56,408 bases of DNA from Candidatus Pacearchaeota archaeon CG_4_10_14_0_2_um_filter_35_33 (GTDB lineage Archaea; Nanobdellota; Nanobdellia; Pacearchaeales; GW2011-AR1), in the NCBI GenBank assembly GCA_002792635.1, contig PFOR01000013.1:1-56408 (forward strand). Reading direction: 5' to 3'. Shown here piece after piece: positions 3,670-47,316 of this stretch. Below the pieces are notes generated by a model, which did not search any database, was not told the DNA's origin, and saw only the letters and a list, made by a program, of their open reading frames with translations. Numbering within the stretch: the stretch's first letter is position 1; each line of letters opens with the position of its first letter. Made by a program: the position numbers and the translations under genes.

Positions 3670-4074
3670 TTATTTCCAACTCTGCATATGTCTTTGAGCA
3701 GCTCTTCTTGTCTTCCTGTAAACATTTCCAATTCTGGCATTACTGGCTTCTTCTATTTGAATTCTTTTACCGCCATTAATCTTCACATAATCATATCCTG
3801 ATTCTTTCAAAATTTCTCTTTTAGTTCCTGTTCCCATAAAGAGATTTTCCGGATTCAAATCGCTCTCTCTTTCCCTGACAAGTTTCATAAACAAATGATA
3901 ATCAATTTGCCTTCCTGATTTTCTCCGTCCTATTACATAAGAATCAGCCTGTCTCTCTTCTTCATAGTTATCTGGATGAATCCCCGCATTCATCATTTTT
4001 ATATCTTCCGGACTAACTCCTCTCGAAGTTATTCTATTGTAAGTCTGTAAATCCTTTTTGTTCATAAAAAGCAA
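3670..4074 (-). CDS. Hypothetical basic protein (likely start at MNKKD, nt 4065)
   Basis: ORF only; no motif recognised. Confidence 0.4.
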   Translation of the reverse strand: MLFMNKKDLQTYNRITSRGVSPEDIKMMNAGIHPDNYEEERQADSYVIGRRKSGRQIDYHLFMKLVRERESDLNPENLFMGTGTKREILKESGYDYVKINGGKRIQIEEASNARIGNVYRKTRRAAQRHMQSWK

Positions 4075-6592: not shown

Positions 6593-6775
6593 CTATAACA
6601 TAGCAAAATAAAATATAACTCCGAGAAAATCGTTACGTATGATAAATATCTTTGACCATTTGCTTTCTGTAACAACGCGGCAGTCATGGTTCATTGGACA
6701 TACCAGAGGTTTCTTTTTGTAATGTTTCAAAACTAAATAGATTGAATTAATTATACCAATAAAAGATAAAACCAA
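6593..6775 (-). pseudogene. VKOR-like (vitamin K epoxide reductase family) N-terminal fragment, truncated or frameshifted
   Basis: TM1 plus loop pattern VCPMNHDCRVVTESKWSKIFIIRNDFLGVIFY (C-x6-C..V..S). No CxxC-containing second half. The ORF continues only in another frame (6424..6590). Confidence 0.3.
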
Positions 6776-6803
6776 GAAGGATGCAATTAATTACACCATT
6801 ATT

Positions 6804-11315: not shown

Positions 11316-13646
11316 ATGAAATTACACAAGGGTTTTATAGTTTCCATTTCAACAAAAACCAATTATGATTCTACTTACATCCAGTTATTTGGAAAGCTCG
11401 AAAATGGAAAATCCTTCTCATCAATTCACCCATATACCCCTTATTTTTTCATACAAGAGTCCAACCTAAAAAAAGCATCCATTTTACTAAAAAAATTCAA
11501 ATCAGAAAAAACAGAATTAACAAACTTCCAAGGGAAAAAAGTAGTAAAAATAATTTCCGAAAAACATCTTGATTTAGCAAAACTCTCTCACGCTTTACAT
11601 AAAAAGGATATTGAGACTTATGAGGCAGACTTAAATCCAACAATCAAATTCATAATAGATAATAATCTTCTAGGCTCAATAGAAATATCTGGAGAATCAG
11701 AACCGACAGAAAGAGTAGACCTATTTTTTGAGAATCCTGAAATAAAACCCTCAACGTATAAACCTGAACTAAAAATAGCTTCCATAGATATAGAAACAGA
11801 CAAAAAACAAAATTCACTATATTGTATTGGGATACACTCAAAAAATTATAAGAAAAACTTTATCGTTTCAAAAGAAAAGCTACCTAATGCCATTTCTTGC
11901 AAAACAGAAGAAGAATGCTTATCAAAATTCAAAGAAGAATTAATTTCACTAGATCCAGATATAATAACTGGATGGCACGTAATCGATTTCGACTTAGCTT
12001 TCCTTAAAAAGAAATTTGAAGAACACAAGATTCCTTTTGATATTGGAAGAACAAATGAATCTGCAAGAATCAAAATAGAATCCAATTTCTTCCGTTCTTC
12101 TTCAGCATCGGTTCCAGGGAGGCAAGTGCTAGATGGATTAAACCTAATTAGGGACCCTTTTATAAAAGAAGCTCCTTCAATAAAAACCAAGAACTTTGAA
12201 TCATATACTCTAGAGAATGTTTCAAGAGAAATATTAGGTGATGGAAAAATAATAAAAGGAAAAGCAAGACATCAGGAAATAGAAAAACTTTATCAAAAAA
12301 ATCAAAAAAAATTGGTTGAATATAATCTGAAAGATTGCGAGCTTGCATATAAAATTCTAGAAAAAACAAAAATAATTGATTTAGCAATAGAAAGAACCCA
12401 TCTAACAGGATTGCCATTCAATAGGCTAACAGCATCAATAGCTGCGTTTGATTCATTGTATATCAGACAAGCAAGAAAAGCAGGACTCGTATCTCCAACT
12501 TCTCATTATAAAGAAAGAACTGAGAGAATAACAGGAGGATACGTCATGGAATCCAAACCTGGAATCTATCACAATGTATTAGTTCTAGATTTTAAATCCC
12601 TATATCCATCAATAATAAAAACATTTAACATAGATCCCTCATCACTATTAGAAAGAAAAACCCCTGGATCAATAGAGACTCCAAACAAAGCATATTTCAT
12701 AAATCAAACAGGCATTTTACCTAAAATAATAGAAACACTCCATACTGCTAGAGAGAAAGCAAAAAAAGAAAACCGAGAATTGTCATCTTATGCTATAAAA
12801 ATAATTATGAACTCCTTCTTCGGAGTTCTTGCAAATCCAAACTGCAGATATTATTCTCTAAAAATGGGAAATGCAATAACTCATTTTGCCCAATTTATCA
12901 TAAAACTTACAGCAAAGAAAATTGAAGAATCTGGATATAAAGTCATATACTCAGACACAGACTCTGTATTTGTAGACACAGGTTTAGGAAAAGAAAAAGC
13001 AAATCAGCTTGGAAAACAAATCCAGGATTATATAAATAAATTCTTTAAAAAATACGTAGAAGAAAACTACCGCAGAGATTCCTATTTAGAACTGGAATTT
13101 GAAAAACAATACCTCTCATTCCTAATACCCAAAGTTAGAGGCTCGGAATCTGGTTCTAAAAAAAGATATGCTGGGCTAATAGAAAAATCAGGCAAAGAGG
13201 AAATACAAGTCATCGGTCTTGAAGCTATAAGGGGAGACTGGACAGAAGTAGCAAAAGAATTCCAATTAAAATTACTAGATAAAATCTTTCATAAAGAAGA
13301 GTTTGTTAGTTTCATAAGAAAATATGTAAGGGATATCAAATCTGGAAAATTTGACGAAAAACTAGTATATAGAAAGTCTATAAGAAAAGCCTTAGATTCT
13401 TACACAAAAACAACGCCTCCTCATGTTAAAGCTGCAAGAAAACTGGATTCTTTAGATTCAAACATAATAGAATATTATATAACAACAAAAGGCCCGGAGC
13501 CAATACAGAAATTAAAAAATAAAATAGATTACAAACATTACATAGATAAACAGATTAAACCTATCGCAAACACAATCCTATTCTTCTTTGAAAAAGATTT
13601 TGAAGAAATCTTAGAATCCACAAAGCAGATGAAGTTATTCCATTAA
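11316..13646 (+). CDS. polB: Family-B DNA polymerase, E. coli Pol II-like
   Basis: SIDIET (Exo I), ITGWHVIDFDLAFL (Exo II), DFKSLYPSII (motif A), KIIMNSFFGVL (motif B), YSDTDSVFV (motif C), GSKKRYAGL, PPHVKAAR. Confidence 0.95.
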   Translation: MKLHKGFIVSISTKTNYDSTYIQLFGKLENGKSFSSIHPYTPYFFIQESNLKKASILLKKFKSEKTELTNFQGKKVVKIISEKHLDLAKLSHALHKKDIETYEADLNPTIKFIIDNNLLGSIEISGESEPTERVDLFFENPEIKPSTYKPELKIASIDIETDKKQNSLYCIGIHSKNYKKNFIVSKEKLPNAISCKTEEECLSKFKEELISLDPDIITGWHVIDFDLAFLKKKFEEHKIPFDIGRTNESARIKIESNFFRSSSASVPGRQVLDGLNLIRDPFIKEAPSIKTKNFESYTLENVSREILGDGKIIKGKARHQEIEKLYQKNQKKLVEYNLKDCELAYKILEKTKIIDLAIERTHLTGLPFNRLTASIAAFDSLYIRQARKAGLVSPTSHYKERTERITGGYVMESKPGIYHNVLVLDFKSLYPSIIKTFNIDPSSLLERKTPGSIETPNKAYFINQTGILPKIIETLHTAREKAKKENRELSSYAIKIIMNSFFGVLANPNCRYYSLKMGNAITHFAQFIIKLTAKKIEESGYKVIYSDTDSVFVDTGLGKEKANQLGKQIQDYINKFFKKYVEENYRRDSYLELEFEKQYLSFLIPKVRGSESGSKKRYAGLIEKSGKEEIQVIGLEAIRGDWTEVAKEFQLKLLDKIFHKEEFVSFIRKYVRDIKSGKFDEKLVYRKSIRKALDSYTKTTPPHVKAARKLDSLDSNIIEYYITTKGPEPIQKLKNKIDYKHYIDKQIKPIANTILFFFEKDFEEILESTKQMKLFH

Positions 13647-14891
13647 CTCTTTCTTTTCCCTATTCTTTTTATATAAGTAATAAGCCAATAATCCTGCAAT
13701 AATCAGCAATATTATTGCAATGGATATCAATAAGGCTCTGTACCAAAGACTAGCAGGAGAAAGCCTGAATGCATTGCTTGAACTAGCCTTCTTATCATTA
13801 TAACTTAATTCCACGTAAAAGAGGTATCTGCCATAATCTAATTCTTTTGGAATCTCAAACTCTCTATCGAGAGACAAAAATCCATTAACTTGTAAATTCT
13901 CACTACCTAAAAAGAATGAATTATCCTCAAAATCCTTAATGAAATAACTAGTATTTACTACAACAGGACCTTGGTTAGAAATATCCGTCATGTTGATATT
14001 AGCAAAAATCTTATCATTCTTCAATAAGATACTAGAATCTAATTCGGAATTAACATCAAAAAGAATTCCTGAATCTAAAACATTAATGATGAGATTAACC
14101 GTTCTCGAAACAGTTCCCGCCTTAAAAGTCACACCTCCTGTATTTATGCCTGGCTGTTGTGAAGAAGGAATATCAAAAATTATATCGAAGGCCCTCTCTG
14201 AACCCGAATCCAGATTGAAGTTGATAGGAGTCACACTAAAGAGATTTGTAGAACCAACAAAGGAAGAACTAATAGCCAAACCAACATCTCCGGTATTCTT
14301 CACCACAAGAGTTTGAGTTAATTCCTGTCCCTGTTTCAAATCGACATCAATCAAATCCCTTGAAACAGTAAAGTTAGCTAACCCTCCATCCCCTCCTCCT
14401 CCGCTCCCACCACCAGAATCACATGCTACTAAAGTCAAATCAATATTCCATTCAACACTAGCTAAATCAAAACCATCAGAAATCTCTACCTTAACTTTTC
14501 TATCTCCTTTAACACCACACCCAAAATTAAAATCGAATTCATCAAATCCACTTCCTAAAAACCCTGTAGTCTTCTTAATATCATTACCGTCGACAAACCA
14601 TTTCACATTCAAAAAATCGCCATCCACATCTTCGAAAGTAACATTAAAGTACAAGTCATCAGTACCCAAAGCATTCAAGGATAAATCACCCGGATTATGT
14701 TCTGTTATAACAGGAGCATTATTATCCTCAACGTTAACAGTTGCGTCAATAGGAGAAAGTCTTTCCCCAGGACTGAACATCATATCACTAGTTTTAGGAA
14801 CTGAAACTAGAACCAGGCTTAATAAAACCAAAACTCCCAATAAAGATATAACTGCAAATAATATATTCTCCTCCCTCATCATCAAGAACAA
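13635..14891 (-). CDS. Surface protein: signal anchor, cadherin/PKD-like module, Gly linker, CARDB-like module, C-terminal TM
   Basis: NAPVITEH..VTFEDVDGDFLNVKW, SGGGSGGGGDGG, VKNTGDVGL, C-terminal ALLISIAIILLIIAGLLAYYLYKK. Last gene of the operon. Confidence 0.6.
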   Translation of the reverse strand: MFLMMREENILFAVISLLGVLVLLSLVLVSVPKTSDMMFSPGERLSPIDATVNVEDNNAPVITEHNPGDLSLNALGTDDLYFNVTFEDVDGDFLNVKWFVDGNDIKKTTGFLGSGFDEFDFNFGCGVKGDRKVKVEISDGFDLASVEWNIDLTLVACDSGGGSGGGGDGGLANFTVSRDLIDVDLKQGQELTQTLVVKNTGDVGLAISSSFVGSTNLFSVTPINFNLDSGSERAFDIIFDIPSSQQPGINTGGVTFKAGTVSRTVNLIINVLDSGILFDVNSELDSSILLKNDKIFANINMTDISNQGPVVVNTSYFIKDFEDNSFFLGSENLQVNGFLSLDREFEIPKELDYGRYLFYVELSYNDKKASSSNAFRLSPASLWYRALLISIAIILLIIAGLLAYYLYKKNREKKELME

Positions 14892-14903
14892 TATACAAAT
14901 TAT

Positions 14904-15527
14904 TTAAACATTCCTTTCTGCAATAGGTGGCTGGCGCAAACTTTCAAAAGCTAAATTAGATCTCCTTCTCCTAACATATACAAAAATAATCAGAATCAAC
15001 ACAACAATCATCAGAGAAATAATCAAATAGGCCAAATTGAAGAAAGTATCTATAGACTCCAATTCACTTTCCTTGCCAACTTCAGCATCGCCCCCCTTCC
15101 TATTAATGCCTATATCCTTTAAACTTTCTCCAGTCAAAACAAAAAAAGAGGTTACATAACTAGGAGAAAGCTGAACTTTTCCTTCCTCTCCAGAATCTAA
15201 AGAATCAGATAATATTTTAACCTCATACTCTGCCTCTGCATTCACCGGAACTTTAATTTCTATCGGGACCATCACAATATCTCCTGTCTTTAATTCAAAT
15301 ATTGTATCTCCCAAAAATCTGGCTATTTCTCGTCCTTCCAAAAAGCTAAGCTCAACTCTACTAGTATCCACAGATGGATTAGTTAATCTCACTTCAAACT
15401 CTTTAATACTGCCAGGTTCAACAACTAAGGGATTATTCTGATTATAAGGACTACTAAAAGAAAAAGATGAGGAGACTAAGCCAATACAAAAAACAAAAAT
15501 AACAAACCACATAAAAATCTTGTTCAT
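14904..15527 (-). CDS. Surface protein with signal peptide and C-terminal TM anchor
   Basis: MNKIFMWFVIFVFCIGLVSS.., Ig/CARDB-like PLVVEPGSIKEFEVRLTNPS, C-terminal LIISLMIVVLILIIFVYVRRRR. Confidence 0.55.
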   Translation of the reverse strand: MNKIFMWFVIFVFCIGLVSSSFSFSSPYNQNNPLVVEPGSIKEFEVRLTNPSVDTSRVELSFLEGREIARFLGDTIFELKTGDIVMVPIEIKVPVNAEAEYEVKILSDSLDSGEEGKVQLSPSYVTSFFVLTGESLKDIGINRKGGDAEVGKESELESIDTFFNLAYLIISLMIVVLILIIFVYVRRRRSNLAFESLRQPPIAERNV

Positions 15528-15557
15528 CTTAATCTAAAATAAATGAACATTAAAAAC

Positions 15558-16070
15558 TTACCTCTTCTTCTTCATAGAAGACAAAACTAACCATATAATC
15601 AAAATCAATACTATAATCCCTATCACCCACCACCAAACACTACTTCCAGCATCAGTCTCATTAGTCGTAACAGTTTGATTATCATCGGGCTGAGCAAGAA
15701 CTTCCATTTCCCAAGAAAGCCTTACACCAGGACTCAATGCAACAGTCTCTCCACCAGCACCCTCTGTACTAACCTTCATAGAAACACTAGCTGTTGAACC
15801 AACAGGTGGAACACTATTCAATTTAGCAGGCACTTTCTTAAATCCACCTGCTTCTATAACATAACTCGTACCCTGTGGAAACGAAACACCCTCATAATCG
15901 CTAATCACAAAACTAGCTGTATCTCCTGGATTCTGTATAGTAACAATAAAATTACCATCTGGATAAACAACCTGTGAATGAGCCACTCCAAACGCACTAA
16001 CAGACCCTGCTAGAGCTACAATAAATCCAAACAGCATCAAAAACTTAATTTCTTTCATCATTTTAAACAA
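15558..16070 (-). CDS. Small surface protein with signal peptide and C-terminal TM anchor
   Basis: FLMLFGFIVALAGSVSAFG signal; C-terminal WWWVIGIIVLILIIWLVLSSMKKKR. Confidence 0.55.
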   Translation of the reverse strand: MFKMMKEIKFLMLFGFIVALAGSVSAFGVAHSQVVYPDGNFIVTIQNPGDTASFVISDYEGVSFPQGTSYVIEAGGFKKVPAKLNSVPPVGSTASVSMKVSTEGAGGETVALSPGVRLSWEMEVLAQPDDNQTVTTNETDAGSSVWWWVIGIIVLILIIWLVLSSMKKKR

Positions 16071-17106
16071 CCAAATCTACCTCCCATTGTGTTCCACCCG
16101 AAGTACTATAAGATGGCGAACTAAATATAAGTCCCGTAGTATCTAACCGCTGCCATATGCAGAAGAACATCTCTTCACCCGGATTAGCCGGAGGGCTTCC
16201 AGCACCATAAGCTAAACTAATGCCTGAGATAATTGAAGGTGAACTATCATTTAATGCAGGACTTGCACAAGAACCACTATTAGAACCCCCGACAGTATCT
16301 CCTGCGCTGAAAGCATCAGCGGGCAAATTATCACCTGTACTATCAGTTGGAGGTAAATCGTAAGCAGTAACTTCCGCCGAACTAAAATCTACATTGCCTT
16401 GGTTAACAAAACCAACAGGACCATCGGCAGCCTGGTCTTCAACATCTAAACTTATAGAAGCCCACCCAACAGCAGGGTCATAGCCAAAAGCGGACAACTC
16501 CTGATAAAGAAAATTAATAGCAGATGAATTAGATTGGTTAGAGGCATCCGCTACTTGAACAGTCAACTCCCAGTTTACTGCAGGTTCATAATAATAGTGC
16601 ATAGGTATAGTACACAAATACTCAACAGTATTAGCATTTTGAGTGTTAGCAGTACAATTACCATCAGAGTAATAATAAGTCGGAGCATAATCATTCCCAG
16701 GATTCCTTAAAGAAACATACAAGTTACAGGTTCCCAGTCCAAATCCGGTCTCATTAGAACATTCAATAATTGCCTTACTTCCACCAGGCAAATCATTAAC
16801 ACCATTGTTATCTTCAACTTTAGCTGAAATCTCAACATTGTTTGCTCCATTAATCACAGGTGTAACATCATTAGTTGTATTGTATATCTTATCTCTAACT
16901 TCAGAAGCAGTGATAGTCGGTGCAGCATTCTGAACATTAACATCCACATTAACTGGAGATTCCCTAGGACTATCAAACGGCCAAATTGCACTACCAACTG
17001 AAATAAACATCACAACAAAAACCAAACCCAAAACAAAATTCTTTTTCACCATTTTCTCCATACTCTGAAAACTTCCACATTTATAAACATTTTTATTCTC
17101 TATCAT
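16063..17106 (-). CDS. Secreted/anchored surface protein with cadherin-like module
   Basis: Signal anchor FVLGLVFVVMFISVGSA. NAAPTITASEV..VEDNNGVNDLPGG module. 4-nt overlap with the upstream giant gene. Confidence 0.55.
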   Translation of the reverse strand: MIENKNVYKCGSFQSMEKMVKKNFVLGLVFVVMFISVGSAIWPFDSPRESPVNVDVNVQNAAPTITASEVRDKIYNTTNDVTPVINGANNVEISAKVEDNNGVNDLPGGSKAIIECSNETGFGLGTCNLYVSLRNPGNDYAPTYYYSDGNCTANTQNANTVEYLCTIPMHYYYEPAVNWELTVQVADASNQSNSSAINFLYQELSAFGYDPAVGWASISLDVEDQAADGPVGFVNQGNVDFSSAEVTAYDLPPTDSTGDNLPADAFSAGDTVGGSNSGSCASPALNDSSPSIISGISLAYGAGSPPANPGEEMFFCIWQRLDTTGLIFSSPSYSTSGGTQWEVDLVV

Positions 17107-20100
17107 TTTACTTTTTTCTTAGCTCTTGAATACAATGTCCAAACATTCCTATTATCTTTTCCTATCAATTCGGCAATCTCTAAATTACCCATATCTTTCC
17201 TAAGATAATAAACAATAGCTTCCAAGATGCTAAGCCCACTATTAAACACATTAACCGGAATCACCATACCCTCTGTAACCACAAGTCTTCCTTTTTTCTT
17301 CTTTAAAGCATTATTATAATTGTTCCAAACAGTCCTCTGATCCCTTCCAATTGTTTCAGCAATTTCACTAAACTTCATCCCTTCATTTTCTTTCAAATAC
17401 TTACATAATACCTCGGCAGGACCCAACTTATTATCCCTGAATATAGATAATGGAATACGGATTTCCATCTTCCTCACCTTATTAGAAACTAATTTATCTC
17501 TAAGCAATTCCAACAACTCATCACTCGATAAATTCCCTGCCAAATCCCTCAACTCATTTCTCCTCTTCAAAGAAAGAGGTAATCCAAACATCGTTGCCCA
17601 TCCAATAATCAAAGCAAACAAGATTTCCCAAGCACCAGAATAACTTCCAGTAGACAATCCTGTTGGCACCTCCTCAGCACAATAATCCAATACTTCCTGC
17701 GAATTCTCCCCCCTCGGCAAAACAGCATTAGGAATAGTAACTGGATTCCCATCAACAAGCCTAAATTCATTACATATCAAATCATCAGCATTAACACTAA
17801 ATTTATCAGAAATTATTTGATTTATTCCATTACTTAATGGGTTCCCTGTAACAGTTATAGAGGTGAAATCCTTATTTCCCAAATTCAGAATTATAAGATT
17901 ATCATCCGCGGGAATATCAGTCCCTCCCGGGACTAATCCAGACCATACAATTGAAAACGGTTCGTTAACATACTGAGACTCCCACAAATTAAATTCGTTA
18001 TTATCTCTCTTCGAGTTCTGCTGACTCAGGCTGTCTGTAGCCCTGGCACCCACATCCCATAATCCTGGCTCATCATAATACTGAATCCCAACAACACAAT
18101 CAAACTCAGCAGTAGTTGGATTAATTATCGTCCCTTTAGCACAATCCAAGTCATCTCTTGTTAGAGGATCACTAGGAGGGAAGAAACTTGTTTCAACTAA
18201 AGTTATGTCCCCATGTCCATCGGGATCTGAAACAGTTATCGTTGCGAGAACATTAGAAATGTCTCCTTCTACAATAAGTTGATCAGGGTCAACATAAATA
18301 TTTTGAATTGTGGGTGGCTGATTAACGGCTCCTGCTTCTCCTATGTAATAATAGCTAAACCCTGTAACGTTAAACTTGACAGTTTCTGCATTCAAATTGG
18401 TAAATGCTGTGCATTCATTTCCACAATCTAAACCATCCCTCCTAATTGCAGGGTCCACAAAGTTACCAGGCATGTTTCTAAATGTTATATTCGCCTCTTT
18501 ATTCAATGCGCCTAGCTCGGGAACAATATTAACATAAGCATAATTATAACTAACCTCTGTATTTGAATCGAGATTTCCGAATCTTGGATCCAAAGAATCT
18601 GTAGCATTCCATTCTATAGAGCCCCCTTGATAAGAACTGTTAATCAAACTTAATGCAAACTTAATACCATAATGAACGCCAAAATCTTCAAATCCTTTTG
18701 AATAGTTTATAGAAATCCTTCCGGTATCCCCATCAGCACCTGTAATTTGTCCCCTTCCTTCCTTAACACTTATGTGAACTCCCTTCATGTCTACAAAATC
18801 ATTTTCGAAATATATGTTTCCTCCGTCTCCAGGCGATTGCTCAAAGGTAGCTGCACTCCCACCATGTAAATTTGCATTAGAAGTAACATTAGAATTAAAT
18901 AAGAACAAGCTACCTCCGTGTACTCCTGTGCCTTGTCCACTTCCACCTCCTGTATTTCCGTAAAGCAAAACGTCTTCTACTTCAGAATTATACATAGTTA
19001 CATTGGGTCTCGACCTTGGGGTACTTCCCAAAGCTTCTATAGAACTTCCAAAATTAGTAACTCTCGTATTCTTAAGAGTGAAATTCTTAACATCAGCCCT
19101 TGTAAGGTTTATCCCCACACTATCCGGTGCTCCATCACCTGTGATAACAAAACCATTTCCATTCAAAGAAATATCATTAGCATTAACTTGTATACAAACT
19201 TCAGACCCTGACACGTCAGATGACAAAACATATTCTTTCCCTGCTTGATTTAAAATAGCACAAGTTGAAATTCCAGATTCATCAACAGAAAAATCAACAC
19301 TTTCTGTATTATTAATCAATCCAGAATTATCTCCCGTATAAAATAGAATTGTGTAGTCTCCAGTATTAAGAGTGTCCAAATCGTAATTGAAATTAATTCC
19401 ATCTGTAGTAGACATTGTAAAGTTTGTAGCCCAATTATCAAGGGTAAAGTTAACACTTCCAACACCTTCATCCAAACTTACCGTAACTGGAATTGGAAAT
19501 TCATTGGCATTATAAATTCTTGATTCAGGAGATGTAATATCAACGTCAGGAGGGCTATCTCCAATAACTGTAACCTCATCAACAACGCACCTCTCCCCTC
19601 CACCACTATTATCAATGATACATTCGAACGTAACTGTCATCTGGTTCGTGAAAGAGAGTTGATTTTGAAGTTTTCCAAATTTAGCATATCCAAGAGTAGA
19701 GCCCGGAGGAATACTTTGATCAACACTATCAGCAAAAATGCTACTTAATATGACTGGCACATCAACTCCGTTATCTAAATGAACAACCATTCCCTCACCA
19801 ACATCAACCTTGTAAAGTTTGTAACTAAGAGACAAATTTGCTGTGCTAAAACCGGATAAATCGAAAGTCTCGCTAAGGTTAAATGAACATGGCCCATTAA
19901 GACATTCAAACCCGGGATTGCTCGCACATGTTCCAGAAAAAGCCCCCCCAGGCAAATCCCAGGAACCAAAAGGAACATTCTGCCAGTTTCCAAGACTGTT
20001 ACAAGATTCGTACATAACTGTTTCAGCAGGGGCAAAAGAAATCTCCTCTTGTCCAAAAAAGTTCATACCCATCAACAACAGACCAAACAAAAGCAAAATA

Positions 20101-20402
20101 ACAGCTGACAAAACAAACTTCTTATTGACGACAAATCCAGGTTTCTTCTTAGAATAAAAATCCAAATATTTCTGATAGACATCTATTGTTTTATCGTAAT
20201 AGTTCATCCATTCACTTAATTTCCTTCCATCCAAACCTTTATCCAACAACTGCTTGTAAGTTTCCTCATTTAAATGCCCGGATTCATGTTGAGCAATCAA
20301 ATCTTCAACAAATCCTCTCTTTCTCTTCTTGGCAGCCTCAGCCTCGTTAATTTTTTCGTTTATCTCATTAATCCTTCTATTAATCTCTTCCATGCTTGCC
20401 AT
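17103..20402 (-). CDS. Giant two-TM surface protein: cytoplasmic coiled coil, TM, lectin-like + Ig-like + right-handed beta-helix ectodomain, TM, two cytoplasmic HTH modules
   Basis: TM1 FVLSAVILLLFGLLLMGMNFF. NosD/beta-helix-like CIQVNANDISLNGNGFVITG..GINL. TM2 AWEILFALIIGWATMFGLPLSL. Tail repeats ..FSEIAETIGRDQRTVWNNYNNALKK and ..LEIAELIGKDNRNVWTLYSRAKKK. Confidence 0.7.
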   Translation of the reverse strand: MASMEEINRRINEINEKINEAEAAKKRKRGFVEDLIAQHESGHLNEETYKQLLDKGLDGRKLSEWMNYYDKTIDVYQKYLDFYSKKKPGFVVNKKFVLSAVILLLFGLLLMGMNFFGQEEISFAPAETVMYESCNSLGNWQNVPFGSWDLPGGAFSGTCASNPGFECLNGPCSFNLSETFDLSGFSTANLSLSYKLYKVDVGEGMVVHLDNGVDVPVILSSIFADSVDQSIPPGSTLGYAKFGKLQNQLSFTNQMTVTFECIIDNSGGGERCVVDEVTVIGDSPPDVDITSPESRIYNANEFPIPVTVSLDEGVGSVNFTLDNWATNFTMSTTDGINFNYDLDTLNTGDYTILFYTGDNSGLINNTESVDFSVDESGISTCAILNQAGKEYVLSSDVSGSEVCIQVNANDISLNGNGFVITGDGAPDSVGINLTRADVKNFTLKNTRVTNFGSSIEALGSTPRSRPNVTMYNSEVEDVLLYGNTGGGSGQGTGVHGGSLFLFNSNVTSNANLHGGSAATFEQSPGDGGNIYFENDFVDMKGVHISVKEGRGQITGADGDTGRISINYSKGFEDFGVHYGIKFALSLINSSYQGGSIEWNATDSLDPRFGNLDSNTEVSYNYAYVNIVPELGALNKEANITFRNMPGNFVDPAIRRDGLDCGNECTAFTNLNAETVKFNVTGFSYYYIGEAGAVNQPPTIQNIYVDPDQLIVEGDISNVLATITVSDPDGHGDITLVETSFFPPSDPLTRDDLDCAKGTIINPTTAEFDCVVGIQYYDEPGLWDVGARATDSLSQQNSKRDNNEFNLWESQYVNEPFSIVWSGLVPGGTDIPADDNLIILNLGNKDFTSITVTGNPLSNGINQIISDKFSVNADDLICNEFRLVDGNPVTIPNAVLPRGENSQEVLDYCAEEVPTGLSTGSYSGAWEILFALIIGWATMFGLPLSLKRRNELRDLAGNLSSDELLELLRDKLVSNKVRKMEIRIPLSIFRDNKLGPAEVLCKYLKENEGMKFSEIAETIGRDQRTVWNNYNNALKKKKGRLVVTEGMVIPVNVFNSGLSILEAIVYYLRKDMGNLEIAELIGKDNRNVWTLYSRAKKKVK

Positions 20403-20429
20403 AATAATTACTTAAAGTGTGTTAAAATA

Positions 20430-20446
20430 GATATATAAACCTTTCC
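20430..20446 (-). promoter_or_regulatory. BRE/TATA-like promoter of the surface operon
   Basis: Minus-strand ggaaaggtttatatatc, about 33 nt upstream of ATG 20402. Confidence 0.45.
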
Positions 20447-20471
20447 AAATTAAGTATTTTATACCTATTTT

Positions 20472-20620
20472 GTATTAATAAAGAACTTAATATGTGTTAT
20501 TTAAACTTAATATGTGTTATTTAAACTTAATATGTGTTATTTAAACTTAATATGTGTTATTTAAACTTAATATGTGTTATTTAAACTTAATATGTGTTAA
20601 TAAAGAACTTAGTATGTATT
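20472..20620. repeat. Perfect 20-bp tandem repeat array (acttaatatgtgttatttaa x5 plus a 15-nt partial) with related flanking half-units
   Basis: Units at 20485, 20505, 20525, 20545, 20565, partial at 20585. Flanks gtattaataaagaacttaatatgt and gtgttaataaagaacttagtatgt. Confidence 0.95.
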
Positions 20621-20686
20621 ACATATCATTCAAAAATATAAGCTAAAGACTAAAAAATTTTACTTAACTTGTATTAAGTAACAGAA

Positions 20687-20917
20687 TTATTCCCGGTAGT
20701 CTGCATCAATTGTTTCTGTCGTTTCAACTCTATCCATAAAAGAACCCTCATCTGTTAGATTTACCAAATGCATTCCTCTTCTAGCAAGACCCATTTCCGA
20801 AGGATCTCTTCTAGCTTCACTCAAAAACAAACCAGGAACTCTCCCTGTTAACTCTTGTGCTTTAACGGCTGTGTCATACACAACGTCAGTTTTAGGTTCA
20901 GTATATCCATTTTCCAT
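20687..20917 (-). CDS. Hypothetical small acidic protein
   Basis: ORF with a locally higher GC look; no motif recognised. Confidence 0.4.
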   Translation of the reverse strand: MENGYTEPKTDVVYDTAVKAQELTGRVPGLFLSEARRDPSEMGLARRGMHLVNLTDEGSFMDRVETTETIDADYRE

Positions 20918-21042: not shown

Positions 21043-21231
21043 ATGGAAAACAAAGAAATAATAAGCCTTAGAAAAGATGTAAATAATCTGAAAGAAGTAG
21101 TTGAAAATCTGACTATTTTAATGAATAGAAGACTGATAAGCGAATTAAAGGAAGAGGCAGATAATATAGAAGCAGGGAAATTTTTAACTGAAGAAGAATT
21201 TGAGAAGAAACATAAGGTTAAAATTCAGTAA
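21043..21231 (+). CDS. Small coiled-coil protein with antitoxin-like C-terminus
   Basis: TATA-like aactataaatatt about 25 nt upstream. C-terminal NIEAGKFLTEEEFEKKH resembles addiction-module component tails. Its 3' end overlaps the relE-like gene by 14 nt, convergently. Confidence 0.45.
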   Translation: MENKEIISLRKDVNNLKEVVENLTILMNRRLISELKEEADNIEAGKFLTEEEFEKKHKVKIQ

Positions 21232-21514
21232 TGTCTTTTGAATAGCCTCTTCTAATATAATCATCACACTCATCTTTGTGTTTTACAGATAAAATCCAGA
21301 TTTCCTTAGCATTTTCCTGAACAATGTAAAACACCCTATAAACCTCTGCCTTAAATTCCCATAAAGTTGGCTTCGTATGTGACAAAGGCTTTCCAACACT
21401 TTCAGGATTTTCTTTTAGGCGAGTCAACTTTTTGATAATTTGTGATGATATTGACTTATCAATCTTCTCAAACTCTTTATCGAACTTCTTTCCAAACTTG
21501 AGAATAAAAAGCAT
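21218..21514 (-). CDS. RelE/ParE-family toxin
   Basis: About 98 aa. KKFDKEFEKIDKSISSQIIKKLTRLKENP..GKPL..LWEFKAEVYRVFYIVQENAKEIWILSVKHKDE is the typical RelE/ParE layout. Confidence 0.7.
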   Translation of the reverse strand: MLFILKFGKKFDKEFEKIDKSISSQIIKKLTRLKENPESVGKPLSHTKPTLWEFKAEVYRVFYIVQENAKEIWILSVKHKDECDDYIRRGYSKDITEF

Positions 21515-24856: not shown

Positions 24857-25456
24857 CTATCCCAGTCCAATCAACAACCCTTCAATAATCGCTGCCACTA
24901 TCAGCAAGGGCAAGATTATAGTTAAGAACACCTTTAAAGAACTCCGGAGCCTTCTGTAAAATTCTTTTTTTATATTTTTGCCAGAAAACCAAAAAGTGCC
25001 AAATTTTATTCCTAAACCGACAGCAATAAAAATCGCAGGAAGCTCAAATATTCCATGAGGAGCAAGCCTCCAGAATGTAAAGATGCCTTCAACCGCAATT
25101 GCCTTATTCATGACAAAACCCAACAAAACCCCATTCACCAAAATACTCATCACAGGGACAATTCCTAAGAGCATGCCTGAAAGAATAGAAATAAAAGCAG
25201 AGCCTAAATTATTCCAAAATATAAATAAAATTAATCCTTCTGTACTCAATCCCTCAGTCTTATCAACCAAATCCCGGATAATTTCTAAAAGATAATTTTC
25301 AAAATACCCCTGGAATATAAAACCAACCAATCCCCCAGCCAAAAATAAAAAGATGGCAGAATAGATATAATTCTTGCTCTCCTTTATGTAATCCCAACTA
25401 TCCTTAAACCAATTACTCCTCTTTCTATTTATCCTCGTTCTTTGTTTCTTTCTCAT
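24857..25456 (-). CDS. SpoIIM-family (DUF95) membrane protein
   Basis: Multi-TM. LAPHGIFELPAIFIAVGLG motif. Confidence 0.7.
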   Translation of the reverse strand: MRKKQRTRINRKRSNWFKDSWDYIKESKNYIYSAIFLFLAGGLVGFIFQGYFENYLLEIIRDLVDKTEGLSTEGLILFIFWNNLGSAFISILSGMLLGIVPVMSILVNGVLLGFVMNKAIAVEGIFTFWRLAPHGIFELPAIFIAVGLGIKFGTFWFSGKNIKKEFYRRLRSSLKVFLTIILPLLIVAAIIEGLLIGLG

Positions 25457-26181
25457 CTAAACATCCTATTCAATAATTTTACCTTTCTTGAATACTTATT
25501 CCTTAAGTAAAATCCATATATGACTCCTACTACCAATCCCCCAAAATGAGCTGTATTGCCAATTGGCCAATTTCCTAAAGCAGAAACTATCCACAATCCA
25601 AACATTAAAAATACCATCCCTGCCCACAGAGGCATAGGGATAATGAAAAATACCAGAACCCTAAGTTTTGGAAGCAAAACTGCCAATAGTCCGCCAATCC
25701 CAAACAATGCACCGGAAGCCCCAACAGCAAACGCATCAATACTTCCAAACAATCTTTCTCCACCGGGCACATAAAGTCCAAGATATGCAAGACCAACGAA
25801 AAACAAACCCGCTGCAATTCCCGAAATCAAATAAAACCACAAAAACCTTTTCCTTCCAATTATCTTCTCAACTAAATTCCCAATAAAGAACATTGAAACC
25901 ATATTAACAAACAAATGGGTAAAACTTCCATGCATAAACATACTTGTAATCAAAGTCCAGATATATCCCTGAACAAACAACTGCGGGTTCAACGCTAAAT
26001 ACTGTAAAAAGCTTCCTCCAAATGCATCAACACTAGTTAAATTAACACTTAATATAACAATCAAAAGTAAAACCAAGAGAAATACAATAACATTCAGATA
26101 AATCAAAAGATTTGTTAAACTAATTCTTTCAAAAAAACCCTTCTTATATCTACGAAGATATCTTTTAGAATGCCTCCTCAT
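25453..26181 (-). CDS. Rhomboid-family intramembrane serine protease
   Basis: HGSFTHLFVNM, GASGALFGIGG (catalytic Ser), AHFGGLVVG (catalytic His). Confidence 0.85.
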   Translation of the reverse strand: MRRHSKRYLRRYKKGFFERISLTNLLIYLNVIVFLLVLLLIVILSVNLTSVDAFGGSFLQYLALNPQLFVQGYIWTLITSMFMHGSFTHLFVNMVSMFFIGNLVEKIIGRKRFLWFYLISGIAAGLFFVGLAYLGLYVPGGERLFGSIDAFAVGASGALFGIGGLLAVLLPKLRVLVFFIIPMPLWAGMVFLMFGLWIVSALGNWPIGNTAHFGGLVVGVIYGFYLRNKYSRKVKLLNRMFR

Positions 26182-31227: not shown

Positions 31228-32460
31228 TTAGGTTGTTTTAGCCATTTTTATCTCTCCTGTCGCTTTCGGTTGTTTAATTGAGTTTAACAGTATAGTTTCC
31301 CATCTGTTTCCATTAACTCCTATCCCACATCTTTCAGCGGGTGTCATTTTATCCTTAACTCCTTTTCTTACGAAGTTATGGAATACTTTAAAGCCATCAG
31401 CGTAAGTTTGAGTTTCATTAATACCTCTCCTTATTTTCTCAAATTCTTTCTGATGAGTGTGGTGGTTTTCTATTGCGTTATTGTTAATTTGTTTTCTTCT
31501 GCCTAAAATTGAAGTATGCTTTACTTTTCTCTCATTACCCCAATTCCTAAATGTCTTTCTTATTCCATCTTGATATGATGGAAGTTTATCAGTTATGATT
31601 TGATAAGGTATTTTTCCATTTTGCCTATATGCTTCTGTCATAACTTTTTGAGCATCTTTCTTGCTTCTTGTATGTCCAGACACTTCCGAAGCTAAAAGGA
31701 ATTGTGTGCCTTTGTCCATTACATTCCATTTATATTCGTAATCTGCTCCTACTTTTCTATTTCCTTTTTTTGTTCTTACCATAGTTTCATCAGCGTGCCA
31801 GATATTAGTTACATTCTTTGGTTGGATTGTCTTGCTGTATTTTTCCATAACTTTAACAAATCTTAAAACCCATCTCCTTATTGTTTCATGGTGTAAATCC
31901 AAACCATAAAATTGCTTAAATTGGTCTGCTATATCTCTATAAGATAATCCTTTGTAATAACAATCCATAGCTAAACAAACAAGTTTAGCATTTCCTTTTA
32001 TGTTTTTAATTGGGCTTAAAACGAATTTCTTTTGGCAATCTTTACAATTAAATCTCTGCTTTTCTCCAATTTGGGTTTTTCTTGTTCCAAACTTAATTAT
32101 ATTTTTAGAAGAACAATAAGGGCAACAATCATTAAGAGGTTTTTCTATTATTAGCTCTATTTCTGGCTTAATCTTTTCCTCAACTTCGTAAGAAGTTTTT
32201 AGTTTCTCAAAAAGAAGTATGGCTTTAATATGTTTGCAGTATAATCCTTTTCCTTTACATCTTCTTTCAAAATCTTGACATTCACAAGAATAAGCGTCTA
32301 TGTGAGTAACCTTATATTTTTTTGAGCTATCAAACTGCGAAGGCACTAAATAAGTAAATTCATCTAAAAGCTGTGGCTCTCCTTTTTGTAAGATAGCTTC
32401 AGCTCTCTTGCTTCTCTTGTCTGCAAATTCTCTTATTTGGTTTTGGTCTGTTTGTATCAT
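31228..32460 (-). CDS. DDE transposase (IS6/IS240-like catalytic region) with N-terminal SWIM finger and IS1/IS1595-like zinc ribbon
   Basis: SWIM YSCECQDFERRCKGKGLYCKHIKAI. CPYC..RFNCKDC ribbon. WHADETMV.., ITDKLPSYQDGI, NNNAIENHHTHQKEFEKIRRG. Confidence 0.8.
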   Translation of the reverse strand: MIQTDQNQIREFADKRSKRAEAILQKGEPQLLDEFTYLVPSQFDSSKKYKVTHIDAYSCECQDFERRCKGKGLYCKHIKAILLFEKLKTSYEVEEKIKPEIELIIEKPLNDCCPYCSSKNIIKFGTRKTQIGEKQRFNCKDCQKKFVLSPIKNIKGNAKLVCLAMDCYYKGLSYRDIADQFKQFYGLDLHHETIRRWVLRFVKVMEKYSKTIQPKNVTNIWHADETMVRTKKGNRKVGADYEYKWNVMDKGTQFLLASEVSGHTRSKKDAQKVMTEAYRQNGKIPYQIITDKLPSYQDGIRKTFRNWGNERKVKHTSILGRRKQINNNAIENHHTHQKEFEKIRRGINETQTYADGFKVFHNFVRKGVKDKMTPAERCGIGVNGNRWETILLNSIKQPKATGEIKMAKTT

Positions 32461-32563
32461 TTTATTGTATTAGTTATTTACTAATTATATTAGTATATGG
32501 TTATATATAAACCTTTCGGTTTTTTCTGGAAACCTTTAAATATATGGATACCTATGGATACCC
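32461..32563. promoter_or_regulatory. Divergent promoter region inside the transposon, with tandem tatggatacc x2
   Basis: Minus-strand aaaggtttatatata (32502..32519). Plus-strand ggaaacctttaaatatat (32528..32545). 10-nt direct repeat 32543..32562 abuts ATG 32564. Confidence 0.45.
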
Positions 32564-32752
32564 ATGATAAATGTAAATACGACGACAGCAAAAAAACTTA
32601 TCTTAGAAAGTGGATATGAAAAGATTTATACCGACGAGGTTAAAACAAATGGTGGTAATTCTGGGAAGATTGGATGTAAAAAAGAGTTTATCGGCAGAGA
32701 AGTTGTTATTTTTGTTCTAAAAGAAAGAGGAGATAAAAAAGATGGAAAGTGA
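32564..32752 (+). CDS. Small AbrB/SpoVT-like protein resembling DUF2080 (archaeal transposon-encoded protein)
   Basis: GYEKIYTDEVKTNGGNSGKIGCKKEFIGREVVIFV matches the remembered DUF2080 pattern (..GNSG.v.lPk.w.Gk.V.v). Confidence 0.45.
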   Translation: MINVNTTTAKKLILESGYEKIYTDEVKTNGGNSGKIGCKKEFIGREVVIFVLKERGDKKDGK

Positions 32753-32957
32753 ATTAAGATTAGCCATAAAATTATTTGAAGAAAAAGTTAATAATACCGA
32801 AGAAGAATATAAAAAAAGATGTAATGGAAATTTTGATAAGGAAAAGATGAGGCGATATGTTAATAGGAAACTCAAAAAAGAGATTATGATACTTAATTAT
32901 GTTAATCTTTTTCCTTCTGCTCGTGCTATAACTTTAACCAAAAAGTTTAAATACTAA
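32742..32957 (+). CDS. Hypothetical basic coiled-coil protein
   Basis: ORF overlapping the previous gene by 11 nt. Confidence 0.35.
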   Translation: MESELRLAIKLFEEKVNNTEEEYKKRCNGNFDKEKMRRYVNRKLKKEIMILNYVNLFPSARAITLTKKFKY

Positions 32958-32969
32958 TTATCTTTCCTA

Positions 32970-33230
32970 TTGACTAATATGGTTAATCCAATTCCAAAAT
33001 GGGTGTGGAAGCGTTACGCTTTGCTATGGAAAAAGTTTGGTGATAAAAACTTTACTTTTGAACAGGCGAAGAAAGAATTAAAATTTGTAGATGGAAATGT
33101 AGTAAGCGTTATGTTTAATGAATTAAAAAATGCGGGATGGATTGCTGTTAATCTTGACGAGAAAGATAGCAGGAAAAGAGTTTATAATTTATTAAATCCT
33201 ATAACTATCGTGGAGAGTGTTACCAAATGA
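32970..33230 (+). CDS. Small winged-helix DNA-binding protein (possible controller of the R-M genes)
   Basis: FTFEQAKKELKFVDGNVVSVMFNELKNAGWIAVNLDEKDSRKRVYNLLNP. ATG at 32979 is the more likely start. Confidence 0.5.
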   Translation: MTNMVNPIPKWVWKRYALLWKKFGDKNFTFEQAKKELKFVDGNVVSVMFNELKNAGWIAVNLDEKDSRKRVYNLLNPITIVESVTK

Positions 33231-33278
33231 TTTTAAGACCAACAAAAACAGAACATGCAGACATCTGGAGTTATCTAA

Positions 33279-34985
33279 ATGGCAAAACCAAATTATACTA
33301 ATTGGAATAAAGAAGATTTGATTAAAGAAGTTGAAGCATTAAAGAAACAAAAGACTTTTGGATTGGTTTGGGAGAGAGATAAAACAAAAGAGGTTTTTGA
33401 TTATTATCTTAATTGGGATGGAACACAAAATAAAGAAACTTTTGGAGAAGAAGAGGGAAAATTTCCTGTATTGCAAGAAGTTAAAACCAAATCAATAGAC
33501 AACCAAGACCCAAAATATAATATTATGATTGAAGGAGATAACTACCATGCTCTTGCTGTTCTAAATTTCACACATAACAAAGCAATAGATGTTATCTACA
33601 TAGACCCACCTTATAACACAGGTGCGAGAAATTGGAAATATAATAATGATTATGTTGATAAAGAAGACGCTTACAGACATAGCAAATGGTTAAATTTTAT
33701 GGAGAAGAGATTAAAGATTGCTAAAAATCTCTTAAAAAAAGATGGTGTATTAATCTGTGCTATTGATGAGAATGAGTTATGGAGATTAGGTTGTTTGCTT
33801 GAAGAAGTTTTTTTTGATTATGAAACTCATTTAGTAACAATAGTCCATAACCCCAAAGGAGTTCAAGGTAAAAATTTTTCATATACTAATGAATTTGCTT
33901 TTTTTGTTGTTCCCAGAGGACAGAAAGTTATAGGTAATAGAAAGTTAAGAGAAGATGAGATATATTGGAGTAATTTGAGAAATTGGGGTGGCGAATCACT
34001 AAGGACAGACGCAAGAAATTGTTTTTATCCTATAATTGTTAAGGGAGATAAAATTGTTGGATTTGGTGATGTTCCTAAGAATGATTTTCATCCAAAAGCA
34101 CAAACAGAGAAAAAGGGAGATTTATATCACATCTATCCTATAGACATACAAGGAGTAGAGAGAAAATGGAGATATGCTCGTCAGAGTGTAGAATCTATAA
34201 AAGATTTCTTAAAAGTTAGAAAATCTAAAGATAGAATAGAAATTGAGATAGGAAAAGATTTTGGAACTGTTAGAACTGTCTGGCAAGATGCCAAATATGA
34301 CGCTTCCGAATATGGCACTAAATTAGTAAATGCTTTAGTTCCTAATGGAAATTTTGATTTTCCAAAATCTGTTTATGCTGTTTTTGATTGCATTTATCCA
34401 ATAATCTCGGAAAGAAAAAATGCAGTTGTTCTTGATTATTTTGCTGGGTCAGGAACAACAGGACACGCCACTATGATGTTAAACAAACAAGATGGTGGAA
34501 ATAGAAAGTTTATACTTTGCACTAATAACGAAAACAAAATATCGGAAGAGGTTTGCTATCCAAGAATAAAAGCCGTAATAAAAGGAAATGAAAAATACCA
34601 AGACATCACAGGAATAAAAGACAATTTCAAATATTTTAAAACAGATTTCGTTGATTCCGCACCAACAGACCAGAACAAAAAGAAAATAGTAGATAAATCC
34701 ACAGAAATGTTATGTATTAAGGAGAATGCCTTTAAACCAATTATTGACAAGAAGGGATATAAAGTTTTCAAAAATTCAGACATCCATTTAGGAATTATTT
34801 TTGATGATGAACAGATAGATAAATTTGTTAAAGAAGCAAAAAGCATTAAAGGAAAATTCCATGTTTATGTTTTCTCTTTTGATGACAGCGTTCCAAAAGA
34901 AGAATTTAAAATTATGGAGGGAAGAATTAAATTATGTCCTATTCCAGAGGTTATACTTCATGTTTATAGGAAAATTTTCAAATGA
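33279..34985 (+). CDS. mod: Type III R-M DNA methyltransferase (Mod), beta-class N6A/N4C
   Basis: IDVIYIDPPYNTG (motif IV) precedes VLDYFAGSGTTGHA (motif I). Size and order typical of type III Mod. Confidence 0.9.
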   Translation: MAKPNYTNWNKEDLIKEVEALKKQKTFGLVWERDKTKEVFDYYLNWDGTQNKETFGEEEGKFPVLQEVKTKSIDNQDPKYNIMIEGDNYHALAVLNFTHNKAIDVIYIDPPYNTGARNWKYNNDYVDKEDAYRHSKWLNFMEKRLKIAKNLLKKDGVLICAIDENELWRLGCLLEEVFFDYETHLVTIVHNPKGVQGKNFSYTNEFAFFVVPRGQKVIGNRKLREDEIYWSNLRNWGGESLRTDARNCFYPIIVKGDKIVGFGDVPKNDFHPKAQTEKKGDLYHIYPIDIQGVERKWRYARQSVESIKDFLKVRKSKDRIEIEIGKDFGTVRTVWQDAKYDASEYGTKLVNALVPNGNFDFPKSVYAVFDCIYPIISERKNAVVLDYFAGSGTTGHATMMLNKQDGGNRKFILCTNNENKISEEVCYPRIKAVIKGNEKYQDITGIKDNFKYFKTDFVDSAPTDQNKKKIVDKSTEMLCIKENAFKPIIDKKGYKVFKNSDIHLGIIFDDEQIDKFVKEAKSIKGKFHVYVFSFDDSVPKEEFKIMEGRIKLCPIPEVILHVYRKIFK

Positions 34986-47184: not shown

Positions 47185-47241
47185 CTAAGAAAGAAAACCC
47201 AATTTAAAATCTTTTTCCAACAACCTCCGACAAGTTTGATA

Positions 47242-47316
47242 CGGCCCCGACAGGATTCGAACCCGCGACCTACTGCTTAGAAGGCAGTCGCTCTATCCAG
47301 ACTGAGCTACAGGGCC
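47242..47316 (-). tRNA. tRNA-Arg(TCT)
   Basis: Minus strand GGCCCTG-TA-GCTC-AGTCTGGATA-GAGC-G-ACTGC-CTTCTAA-GCAGT-AGGTC-GCGGG-TTCGAAT-CCTGT-CGGGGCC-G. Confidence 0.8.

Follow-up and report, generated by a model that had tools for sequence, protein, structure and literature searches.

At the ctxAB promoter of Vibrio cholerae the membrane-anchored factor ToxR reads TTTTGAT heptad repeats, and the number of repeats (3-8) scales output between strains. ToxR is a bacterial protein with an N-terminal OmpR-type winged helix and a single transmembrane (TM) segment, and it reads its 7-nucleotide (nt) unit at a sigma-70 promoter that belongs to another gene. Among the archaea, ArnR and ArnR1 of Sulfolobus acidocaldarius are membrane-bound one-component regulators of genes for cell-surface structures, with ArnR having an N-terminal helix-turn-helix (HTH) and C-terminal TM segments. 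The iteron-binding initiators of the RepA / pi type are monomers that use two unlike DNA-binding subdomains to read asymmetric head-to-tail sites of about 20 nt and repress their own promoter, and Ss-LrpB of Saccharolobus solfataricus has several regularly spaced, helically phased sites before its own gene, through which it exerts concentration-dependent feedback. Upstream of the Haemophilus surface-protein genes hmw1A and hmw2A, changes in the number of 7-nt repeats serve as a graded expression dial across a population. The locus considered here lies in a stretch of 56,408 nt (contig PFOR01000013.1, positions 1 to 56,408; called the window below) from Candidatus Pacearchaeota archaeon CG_4_10_14_0_2_um_filter_35_33, and consists of a perfect tandem array of 20-nt units (20484..20599, minus strand) upstream of the promoter of a gene for a 1099-residue giant surface protein (17103..20402, minus strand) whose predicted cytoplasmic tail bears a double HTH. 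Membrane-bound one-component transcription regulators are established in bacteria and archaea (PMC10269533, a survey in which DPANN archaea are not mentioned; ArnR/ArnR1, PMC6396743).

We predict, with moderate confidence, that the promoter is a conserved autoregulatory one and that the array arose in it by recent, unstable amplification of a single auxiliary operator site. Six identical copies of a site stand upstream of a retained two-site core (20461-77 and 20408-24) and on the same strand. We regard the repeated element as an amplified auxiliary distal site because the canonical two-site promoter has been kept in the window and the same core sequence is present at the corresponding promoter of a relative (L003, discussed below). 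Tandem Repeats Finder (TRF), applied to the whole window, reports a period of 20, 5.8 copies, 100% matches and a score of 232, by a wide margin the strongest short-period repeat in the window, and the array resolves into the five whole units (20485..20584) and 15-nt partial (20585..20599) that an initial annotation of this DNA had described. On the gene's (minus) strand the unit is made up of a 15-nt core, TAACACATATTAAGT, and a 5-nt spacer, TTAAA, and the six identical cores occupy 20485-99, 20505-19, 20525-39, 20545-59, 20565-79 and 20585-99. The 20-mer ACTTAATATGTGTTATTTAA, with at most three mismatches allowed, occurs six times in the window, always within the array, against 0.03 expected. 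The array's setting is a 284-nt gap with minus-strand genes on both sides, namely the giant gene and an upstream 76-residue open reading frame (ORF; 20687..20917, minus strand), the 3' end of which borders this regulatory gap. A coding reading of the array was rejected because every one of the six frames holds stop codons. An exact 35-mer of the array is absent from the GTDB species genomes, a set that does not include the window's species itself (best tail identity 59%).

The interpretation of the array depends on the DPANN-wide family to which the giant protein belongs. An exhaustive HMMER search returned 2565 relatives at E<=1e-3, of which 1407 reach E<=1e-10, and what they share is the C-terminal 400 residues, in which a domain close to the membrane is accompanied by a TM segment and the double HTH. 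The tail is at the very C-terminus in 137 of 139 relatives, the ectodomains vary, with total protein size ranging from about 500 to 4800 residues, and of the 150 best hits 48 have the N-terminal cytoplasmic module as well. Soluble proteins of 160-240 residues with no TM segment also bear the double HTH, and they have the same promoter type. Searching with the tail alignment (A1) located 330 tail-encoding loci in GTDB species genomes, and 79 of these (identified by L numbers) were fetched for promoter comparison; a complete ORF could be called for 62 family members, and the 60 with at least 150 nt of upstream sequence form the promoter set. Eleven records that hold family genes (L026, L041, L043, L051, L058, L060, L062, L064, L067, L075 and L080) carry the GTDB labels "uncultured Methanosarcinales" or "Bacillota bacterium", and because of their content they are probably mislabelled or mis-binned DPANN contigs.

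The family upstream regions share a 17-nt motif with consensus ACATACATAATAAGTAT, which was captured in a matrix and is also apparent by eye. Half of the upstream regions (30 of 60) contain the 8-mer ATAATAAG, for which chance would predict 0.022 occurrences per 250 nt. Matrix hits number 114 in the 18.3 kb upstream of family genes (6.2 per kb) versus 66 in 2.24 Mb elsewhere in the loci (0.029 per kb), an enrichment of about 210-fold over the 79 loci, all from other genomes; most of the 66 outside hits are also just upstream of family genes whose starts were not called or whose leaders are long (for example in L081, L026, L039, L045, L051, L004, L007 and L017). At least one site is present in 52 of the 60 promoters, with two sites as the mode, and their placement is regular. 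In 31 of 49 family promoters a gap of 7 nt separates the 8-nt TATA box from the start of the proximal site, and there are 16 cases in which that site directly abuts the ATG. The distal site stops 19-23 nt short of the TATA box, and the two are separated by 51-56 nt. Additional sites occur at distances of 20-22, 30-34, 42-45 and 62-63 nt, multiples of about one helical turn. Orientation is fixed as well, with 114 sense hits versus a handful in antisense.

The window conforms to this pattern. Upstream regions of 44 window genes give the promoter consensus RAAAGG-TTTAWATA, located 30-37 nt before the ATG, and therefore most messages here are nearly leaderless. The B recognition element (BRE; GGAAAGG, 20440..20446) and TATA box (TTTATATA, 20432..20439) of the giant gene, on the minus strand, fit that consensus. 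When both strands of the window were scanned with a matrix built from other genomes only, the eight best hits all fell within 20461..20676 on the gene's strand, with scores of 15.8 (20461-77), 14.7 (five array copies), 14.2 (a site within a palindrome) and 11.7 (the sixth array copy), while the best hit elsewhere in the 56 kb scored 9.7. The initial annotation's proposal that the units are sites for a regulator is thus borne out to the extent that their core is a variant of the enriched motif with its fixed TATA geometry, and that the matrix singles out this one intergenic region. The pattern TAAYACANNNTAAGT, with at most one mismatch, likewise gives 10 matches in the window against 0.82 expected, all within 20410..20676 and all on the minus strand. 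Beyond the six perfect cores there are four further core copies, at 20410-24, 20463-77, 20607-21 and 20662-76. From copy to copy the ends TAA.ACA and TAAGT are unchanged, and the differences concentrate at positions 4 and 8-10 of the core.

The window maximum, 15.8, belongs to the canonical distal operator-like site TAATACAAAATAGGTAT (20461..20477, minus strand), whose end, 21 nt short of the TATA box, falls in the range usual for the family. The proximal operator-like site TAACACACTTTAAGTAA (20408..20424, minus strand) is a weak match with a matrix score of 6.9; its start lies 7 nt beyond the TATA box, the commonest distance in the family, and 5 nt separate its end from the ATG, which places it over the expected start of transcription. 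An inverted half-site, TACTTAAT (20449..20456, minus strand), stands between the BRE and the distal site; some family promoters have it in the equivalent position, 8 of 36 paired promoters when a strict pattern is applied and more when judged by eye. Measured from the array's proximal edge (20485), the TATA box is 45 nt away and the BRE 38 nt, whereas the initial annotation gave about 30 nt to the TATA box. The initial annotation also had related half-units bracketing the array; related copies do bracket it, but they are full, degenerate 15-nt cores (20463..20477 and 20607..20621), each at a 22-nt offset from the array. The second of these lies within a degenerate distal copy, TAATACATACTAAGT (20605..20621, minus strand; matrix score 7.8), 22 nt from the array's distal edge. 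The fourth copy is part of the palindrome TTACTTAA-N6-TTAAGTAA (20660..20681), which holds the site TAATACAAGTTAAGTAA (minus strand, 20660-76) that scores 14.2. The window's tally is a two-site core promoter, six identical copies and two degenerate ones, ten sites in all. The palindrome adjoins the stop codon of the upstream 76-residue gene and is followed on the minus strand by a T6 run (20652-57); judging from the T-run, palindrome and run together are probably the terminator of that gene's transcript.

Related promoters have comparable arrangements. L003, from Pacearchaeota archaeon UBA92, is a syntenic ortholog with the same operon order, its giant protein being 40% and its family-B DNA polymerase (PolB) 74% identical to those of the window, and its promoter has the identical core TAACACATATTAAGT, two copies upstream and two downstream of the TATA box, with a 20-nt period. 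In L028 a perfect repeat of 64 nt x 2.3 (6649..6798) with five sites precedes the gene of a 180-residue soluble double-HTH protein. L081, from the complete genome of archaeon GW2011_AR20, has eight sites (4478..4781) with alternating 41/44-nt spacing, and L069, L079, L033, L058 and L027 have arrays of 21-22 nt x 3.5-4.1. Overall, the density of TRF arrays (periods of 15-70 nt) is 6.7 times higher upstream of family genes than in other sequence. The window's array is an extreme case of a feature that recurs in the family.

Some of these loci show further peculiarities. The L028 repeat is a second example of very recent operator amplification. The L081 sites precede a giant family gene by a few hundred nt, and the sequence directly before the ATG of that gene also encodes a double-HTH tail, apparently that of a small family gene. 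In L004, L005, L007, L011, L016, L017, L040 and L074 about 150-550 nt separate the site-TATA-site promoter from the ATG of the giant gene, and the leaders contain one or two GC-rich hairpins with CACACAC-type tracts followed by T-runs, resembling attenuators or protein-binding RNA elements. Two strong minus-strand sites, L005 517 (score 24.4) and L011 1338 (20.5), face away from the family gene; a 118-residue ORF starts 48 nt downstream of the former, and both could mark additional members of the regulon.

Site and tail vary together. One tail cluster pairs with the site variant ACATA.ATAATAAGTA, the cluster that includes the window pairs with TCATACATATTAAGTA or TAACACATATTAAGT, and the 169-residue soluble type pairs with ACTTACATAATAT. 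In a Mantel test of tail distance against site-set distance the Spearman r was 0.38, with 0 of 2000 permutations as high, and sites differ at 2.9 of 17 positions within a promoter versus 4.4 between promoters. Paralogues a few kb apart in the same genome (L020, L034, L042 and L069) bear different site variants. Because the variants follow the tail, among paralogues too, and because a non-palindromic site suits a monomer with two unlike HTHs, we consider it likely from these comparisons that the tail recognises the site at its own promoter. Autoregulation by the operon's own HTH protein, suggested in the initial annotation, thereby gains comparative support, since the motif stands at the promoters of genes that encode the module and its variants co-vary with the tail. 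As a separate observation, L034, L042, L061 and L069 each hold two soluble double-HTH paralogues (about 180 and about 169 residues) roughly 5 kb apart; the variants are ACATAnATAnTAAGTA versus ACTTACATAATAT in L034, L042 and L069, and in L061 the difference was seen by eye only.

Hydropathy, the positive-inside rule, Pfam and family membership together describe the giant protein as a cytoplasmic coiled-coil module (residues 1-95), a first TM segment (96-114), an ectodomain of about 810 residues, a second TM segment (about 925-945) and a cytoplasmic double-HTH tail (residues about 960-1099, encoded at 17106-17525). The K/R-rich flanks of both hydrophobic segments put both termini in the cytoplasm. 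With TM segments and a DNA-binding domain on the predicted cytoplasmic side, the protein is a putative transmembrane regulator. Its last 140 residues match Pfam Sigma70_r4_2 in two stretches, with an E-value of 1.3e-8, above the Pfam cut-off, whereas NCBIfam has no family for the tail. An AlphaFold2 model of the tail from a 22-sequence alignment (pLDDT 94.5, pTM 0.84) has two similar strand-plus-four-helix repeats, each of which superposes on region 4 of the sigma factors SigR and SigF at 0.6-0.7 Å over 42-43 residues; the repeats also superpose on LuxR-type domains (RcsB). Sequence and fold searches of the PDB gave no solved analogue of the whole double-HTH module, only single HTHs of the sigma-region-4 or LuxR type, and a word-index protein search with the 1099-residue protein matched only the protein itself.

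The four genes downstream of the giant gene (13635..17106, minus strand) encode secreted or membrane proteins of 347, 170, 207 and 418 residues. By tblastn, homologues of the 347-, 207- and 418-residue proteins lie close downstream of the giant gene in many relatives (L003, L006, L009 and others), and the 170-residue protein gave no match. The cluster of a giant HTH-tailed gene and homologues of these three proteins stands beside the PolB gene both in the window (13635..20402) and in L003 (1433..8131). A rhomboid intramembrane protease gene (25453..26181) lies 5 kb from the giant gene and would be relevant if the tail were cleaved; there is no evidence of a link.

The array is not an invention of assembly, although its exact copy number appears not to be fixed. 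It is seen in three independent assemblies and in 16 sequencing runs; array k-mers are at raised multiplicity, 3-8 times flank depth, in all 16 of the public groundwater and aquifer runs examined. Two further assemblies (L001 and L002) were recovered by way of the 76-residue protein. L002, a JGI metagenome, aligns with the window over 6231 nt with 0 mismatches and one gap, which corresponds to one extra 20-nt unit, so that the copy number is 5.75 in the window and 6.75 in L002; unit number is the only difference between the two over 6.2 kb. L001, an ENA SPAdes scaffold, is 100% identical on both flanks of an N-gap that lies inside the array. In every run the Logan contigs (k=31) are interrupted at the array, and copy number was estimated from unitig depth. 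The interruption leaves two loop unitigs of 36 and 44 nt, which match 6 and 14 k-mer phases occurring n+1 and n times (n=4 in the window allele), and the ratio of loop to flank depth in the 16 runs gives n = 2.1 to 6.4, or about 3.9 to 8.2 copies. The two independent estimates obtained for each run correlate at 0.99. Runs of high depth give 6.1, 6.2, 6.7 and 7.8 copies, and mixtures of alleles are therefore likely. The change in copy number anticipated by the initial annotation thus appears both as an explicit one-unit difference between assemblies and as depth ratios that vary between runs. We call polymorphism between samples only probable because the AT-bias of libraries may skew depths and the estimates come from unitig depth rather than from single reads across the array.

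How such a promoter might work is suggested in part by precedent. In archaea, regulators with sites between TATA box and start (for example MDR1, LrpA and Phr) keep RNA polymerase from being recruited, those with sites upstream of the BRE (for example Ptr2 and SurR) can assist TBP/TFB, and one factor can do both according to occupancy. The conserved pair of sites in this family brackets the BRE and TATA box, five helical turns apart. We envisage that one tail, with its two unlike HTHs, would bind one asymmetric site, and that binding at the proximal site would block recruitment of RNA polymerase, giving dose-dependent negative feedback. The seven strong distal sites of the window might hold membrane-tethered tails near the promoter and cooperatively help to fill the weak proximal site, so that gain or loss of units by slippage or unequal recombination would shift the expression set-point of the surface operon among cells. 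Beyond the conserved, module-linked motif we infer every one of these steps, and the sign of regulation is the least secure of them.

A number of points weigh against this reading. The sign of regulation is a guess from site position, and the proximal site, on which feedback would depend, is a poor match to the motif in the window. The 20-nt period corresponds to 1.9 helical turns, a phase drift of about 34 degrees per unit, which puts the six array sites off a common helix face rather than all on one face as the initial annotation had supposed. The regions used for training the matrix are the regions scored, a circularity offset by the k-mer test, the window test and left-out loci, and the Mantel test is confounded by phylogeny, which only the four same-genome paralogue pairs address. 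The evidence on copy number comes down to one explicit alternative assembly and depth ratios that AT-bias could distort. The array locus was in none of the RNA runs searched. Finally, an unlinked factor could bind the motif.

The last point, stated more fully, is that the motif would be read by an unlinked regulator of surface operons or by a specialised general transcription factor, with the tail having some other target or role. The association of motif and module might then reflect a shared regulon rather than self-recognition, and the strong sites at L005 517 and L011 1338, which face divergent non-family genes, would be at home in such a scheme. We nevertheless think this improbable, as the soluble members of the family, which are little more than the module, have the same promoter, the variants at same-genome paralogues follow tail type, which a single unlinked regulator would not predict, and the asymmetry of the site suits a monomer with two unlike HTHs. 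Somewhat less improbable, although still unlikely, is that the unit holds a functional site while its amplification is a neutral product of slippage or unequal crossing-over, a hypermutable minisatellite with no effect on expression. Perfect identity and copy-number differences do suit a young, drifting repeat, perfect tandem duplications occur elsewhere in the genome (258 nt x2.1 and 18 nt x2.1), and the canonical two-site promoter is complete without the array. Against drift, multi-site arrays with 20-22, 32 and 41-44-nt spacing recur before family genes (L028, L081, L069, L079, L033 and L058), the greater density of tandem arrays upstream of family genes points the same way, and it is unlikely that six strong sites would be silent beside a promoter whose proximal site is weak.

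The junctions between units suggest yet another function, for they read GTTTAAATAA, a TATA box, and the array could thus supply five extra entry sites for TBP/TFB, or start points, directed at the giant gene. The word TTTAAATA occurs 19 times in the window, 5 of them within the array, and the four other copies of GTTTAAATAA are all intergenic and on the strand of the downstream gene, three of them at a clear promoter distance (before tRNA-Arg, 3670..4074 and 13635..14891) and the fourth (11266) with no identified gene. We judge tandem promoters very unlikely all the same: the BRE consensus RAAAGG is missing from the units, which have TTAAG instead, and the spacer of L003 is ATAAA and the base after AAGT is A in 88% of family sites, so the TATA-like word is not conserved, while the family motif already explains 15-17 of the unit's 20 nt. 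Replication-origin iterons, or an artefact of assembly, seem to us barely credible. Direct repeats of about 20 nt do resemble iterons, a resemblance the initial annotation had remarked on, short-read assemblers can mis-size repeats, and L001 has its gap at this very place. The origin reading was rejected because of gene content and skew: no Orc1/Cdc6 or Rep gene is found among the larger ORFs of the window that were scanned, the setting is one of chromosomal housekeeping genes, and there is no GC-skew turn at 20.5 kb, cumulative skew being monotonic there. The concern about artefact, which the initial annotation had itself raised, is answered by k-mer depth, elevated in 16 runs, and by flanks that are identical in the three assemblies, and the 116-nt array is shorter than the assumed read length of 150 nt.

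The remainder of the window is low-GC (35%) archaeal chromosomal DNA with genes that include those for PolB, TFB, TFE-alpha, ScpB and FEN1, along with tRNA-splicing endonuclease, aminoacyl-tRNA synthetases and ribosomal protein S8e. The nearest relatives of these genes are in Pacearchaeota, Woesearchaeota and Nanoarchaeota (DPANN) genomes, and 24 groundwater and aquifer metagenome runs contain 73-99% of sampled window words. The upstream 76-residue ORF, gene-called in two other assemblies, is of unassigned function; it has no family match in Pfam and NCBIfam scans and no relative in metagenome_contigs, a collection that seemingly lacks this organism. An Rfam scan of the window found four tRNAs and nothing else, and a scan for sigma-70 promoters and hairpin terminators was uninformative, the host being an archaeon. 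The promoter of the tRNA-Arg gene (47241..47317) has GTTTAAATAAC, the same word as at each array junction. A second giant surface-protein gene (47945..51055, minus strand; Big_13 domain) contains a perfect (100%) repeat of 258 nt x 2.1 (49658..50197), a very recent duplication; the initial annotation had put forward its product as a possible binder of the array, and no link between it and the locus was found, its proposed ribbon-helix-helix module lying outside the search. A perfect repeat of 18 nt x 2.1, ATTTTTAATCACCGAATT (55769..55806), lies within ORF 55418..56386. Genes for a DDE transposase (31228..32460), a DNA methylase (33279..34985) and a ResIII helicase (34982..37171) adjoin one another; with its lower GC content (30%) and a GC skew that is reversed, the stretch 31228..37171 has the look of an inserted restriction-modification island. 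A convergent 62-residue ORF (21043..21231, plus strand) overlaps the gene of a ParE-family toxin (21218..21514, minus strand), which is not how toxin-antitoxin pairs are usually arranged.

Ultra-small, uncultivated and probably dependent on hosts, DPANN archaea are almost uncharted as regards gene regulation. The family offers a testable regulatory unit consisting of a 17-nt site, a confidently folding module of 140 residues, a fixed promoter geometry and hundreds of natural variants in which site and protein vary together. Through it, the surface proteins that are largest and most variable in the cell would be tied directly to transcription, and the number of sites at one such promoter seems to change on the time-scale of a single aquifer population. 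As a far more tentative proposal, and one we regard as unlikely, the giant surface proteins of DPANN archaea might be one-component contact sensors, in which the ectodomain would read the outside, perhaps a host, and the tail would report to its own promoter, acting either from the membrane or after cleavage, while slippage-prone arrays would spread expression set-points through the population. If true, this would be the first contingency-type locus described in archaea.

A search of the literature found no description of the double-HTH family or of the motif, and the protein family, the motif, the archaeal promoter geometry and an apparently polymorphic archaeal operator array appear to be undescribed; the regulatory logic itself is familiar. 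With ArnR and other transmembrane regulators the predicted system has in common a one-component protein that acts on DNA from the membrane, and the archaeal examples control surface structures, as this one may, but no giant ectodomain, double HTH or amplified array of sites is known to have been described for them. Ss-LrpB differs in being a soluble dimer of the Lrp family that acts on palindromic boxes, and it is not known to show tandem amplification or copy-number polymorphism. Bacterial contingency loci have units of 1-7 nt and work through an effect on spacing, whereas the 20-nt unit here is a whole candidate binding site, in an archaeal host. Compared with the RepA / pi initiators, the window has no replication context, its HTHs resemble sigma region 4 rather than winged helices, and its sites flank a TATA box; the plasmid-iteron initiator monomer is nonetheless the nearest analogy for the way in which the site may be read. 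For the system as a whole the nearest working analogy is ToxR at ctxAB, where, as predicted here from sequence, a membrane-anchored factor meets tandem direct repeats just upstream of a promoter, although the window has an archaeal BRE/TATA promoter, a C-terminal double HTH of sigma-region-4 type, a two-pass protein and a 20-nt unit, and the promoter in question is that of the factor's own gene.

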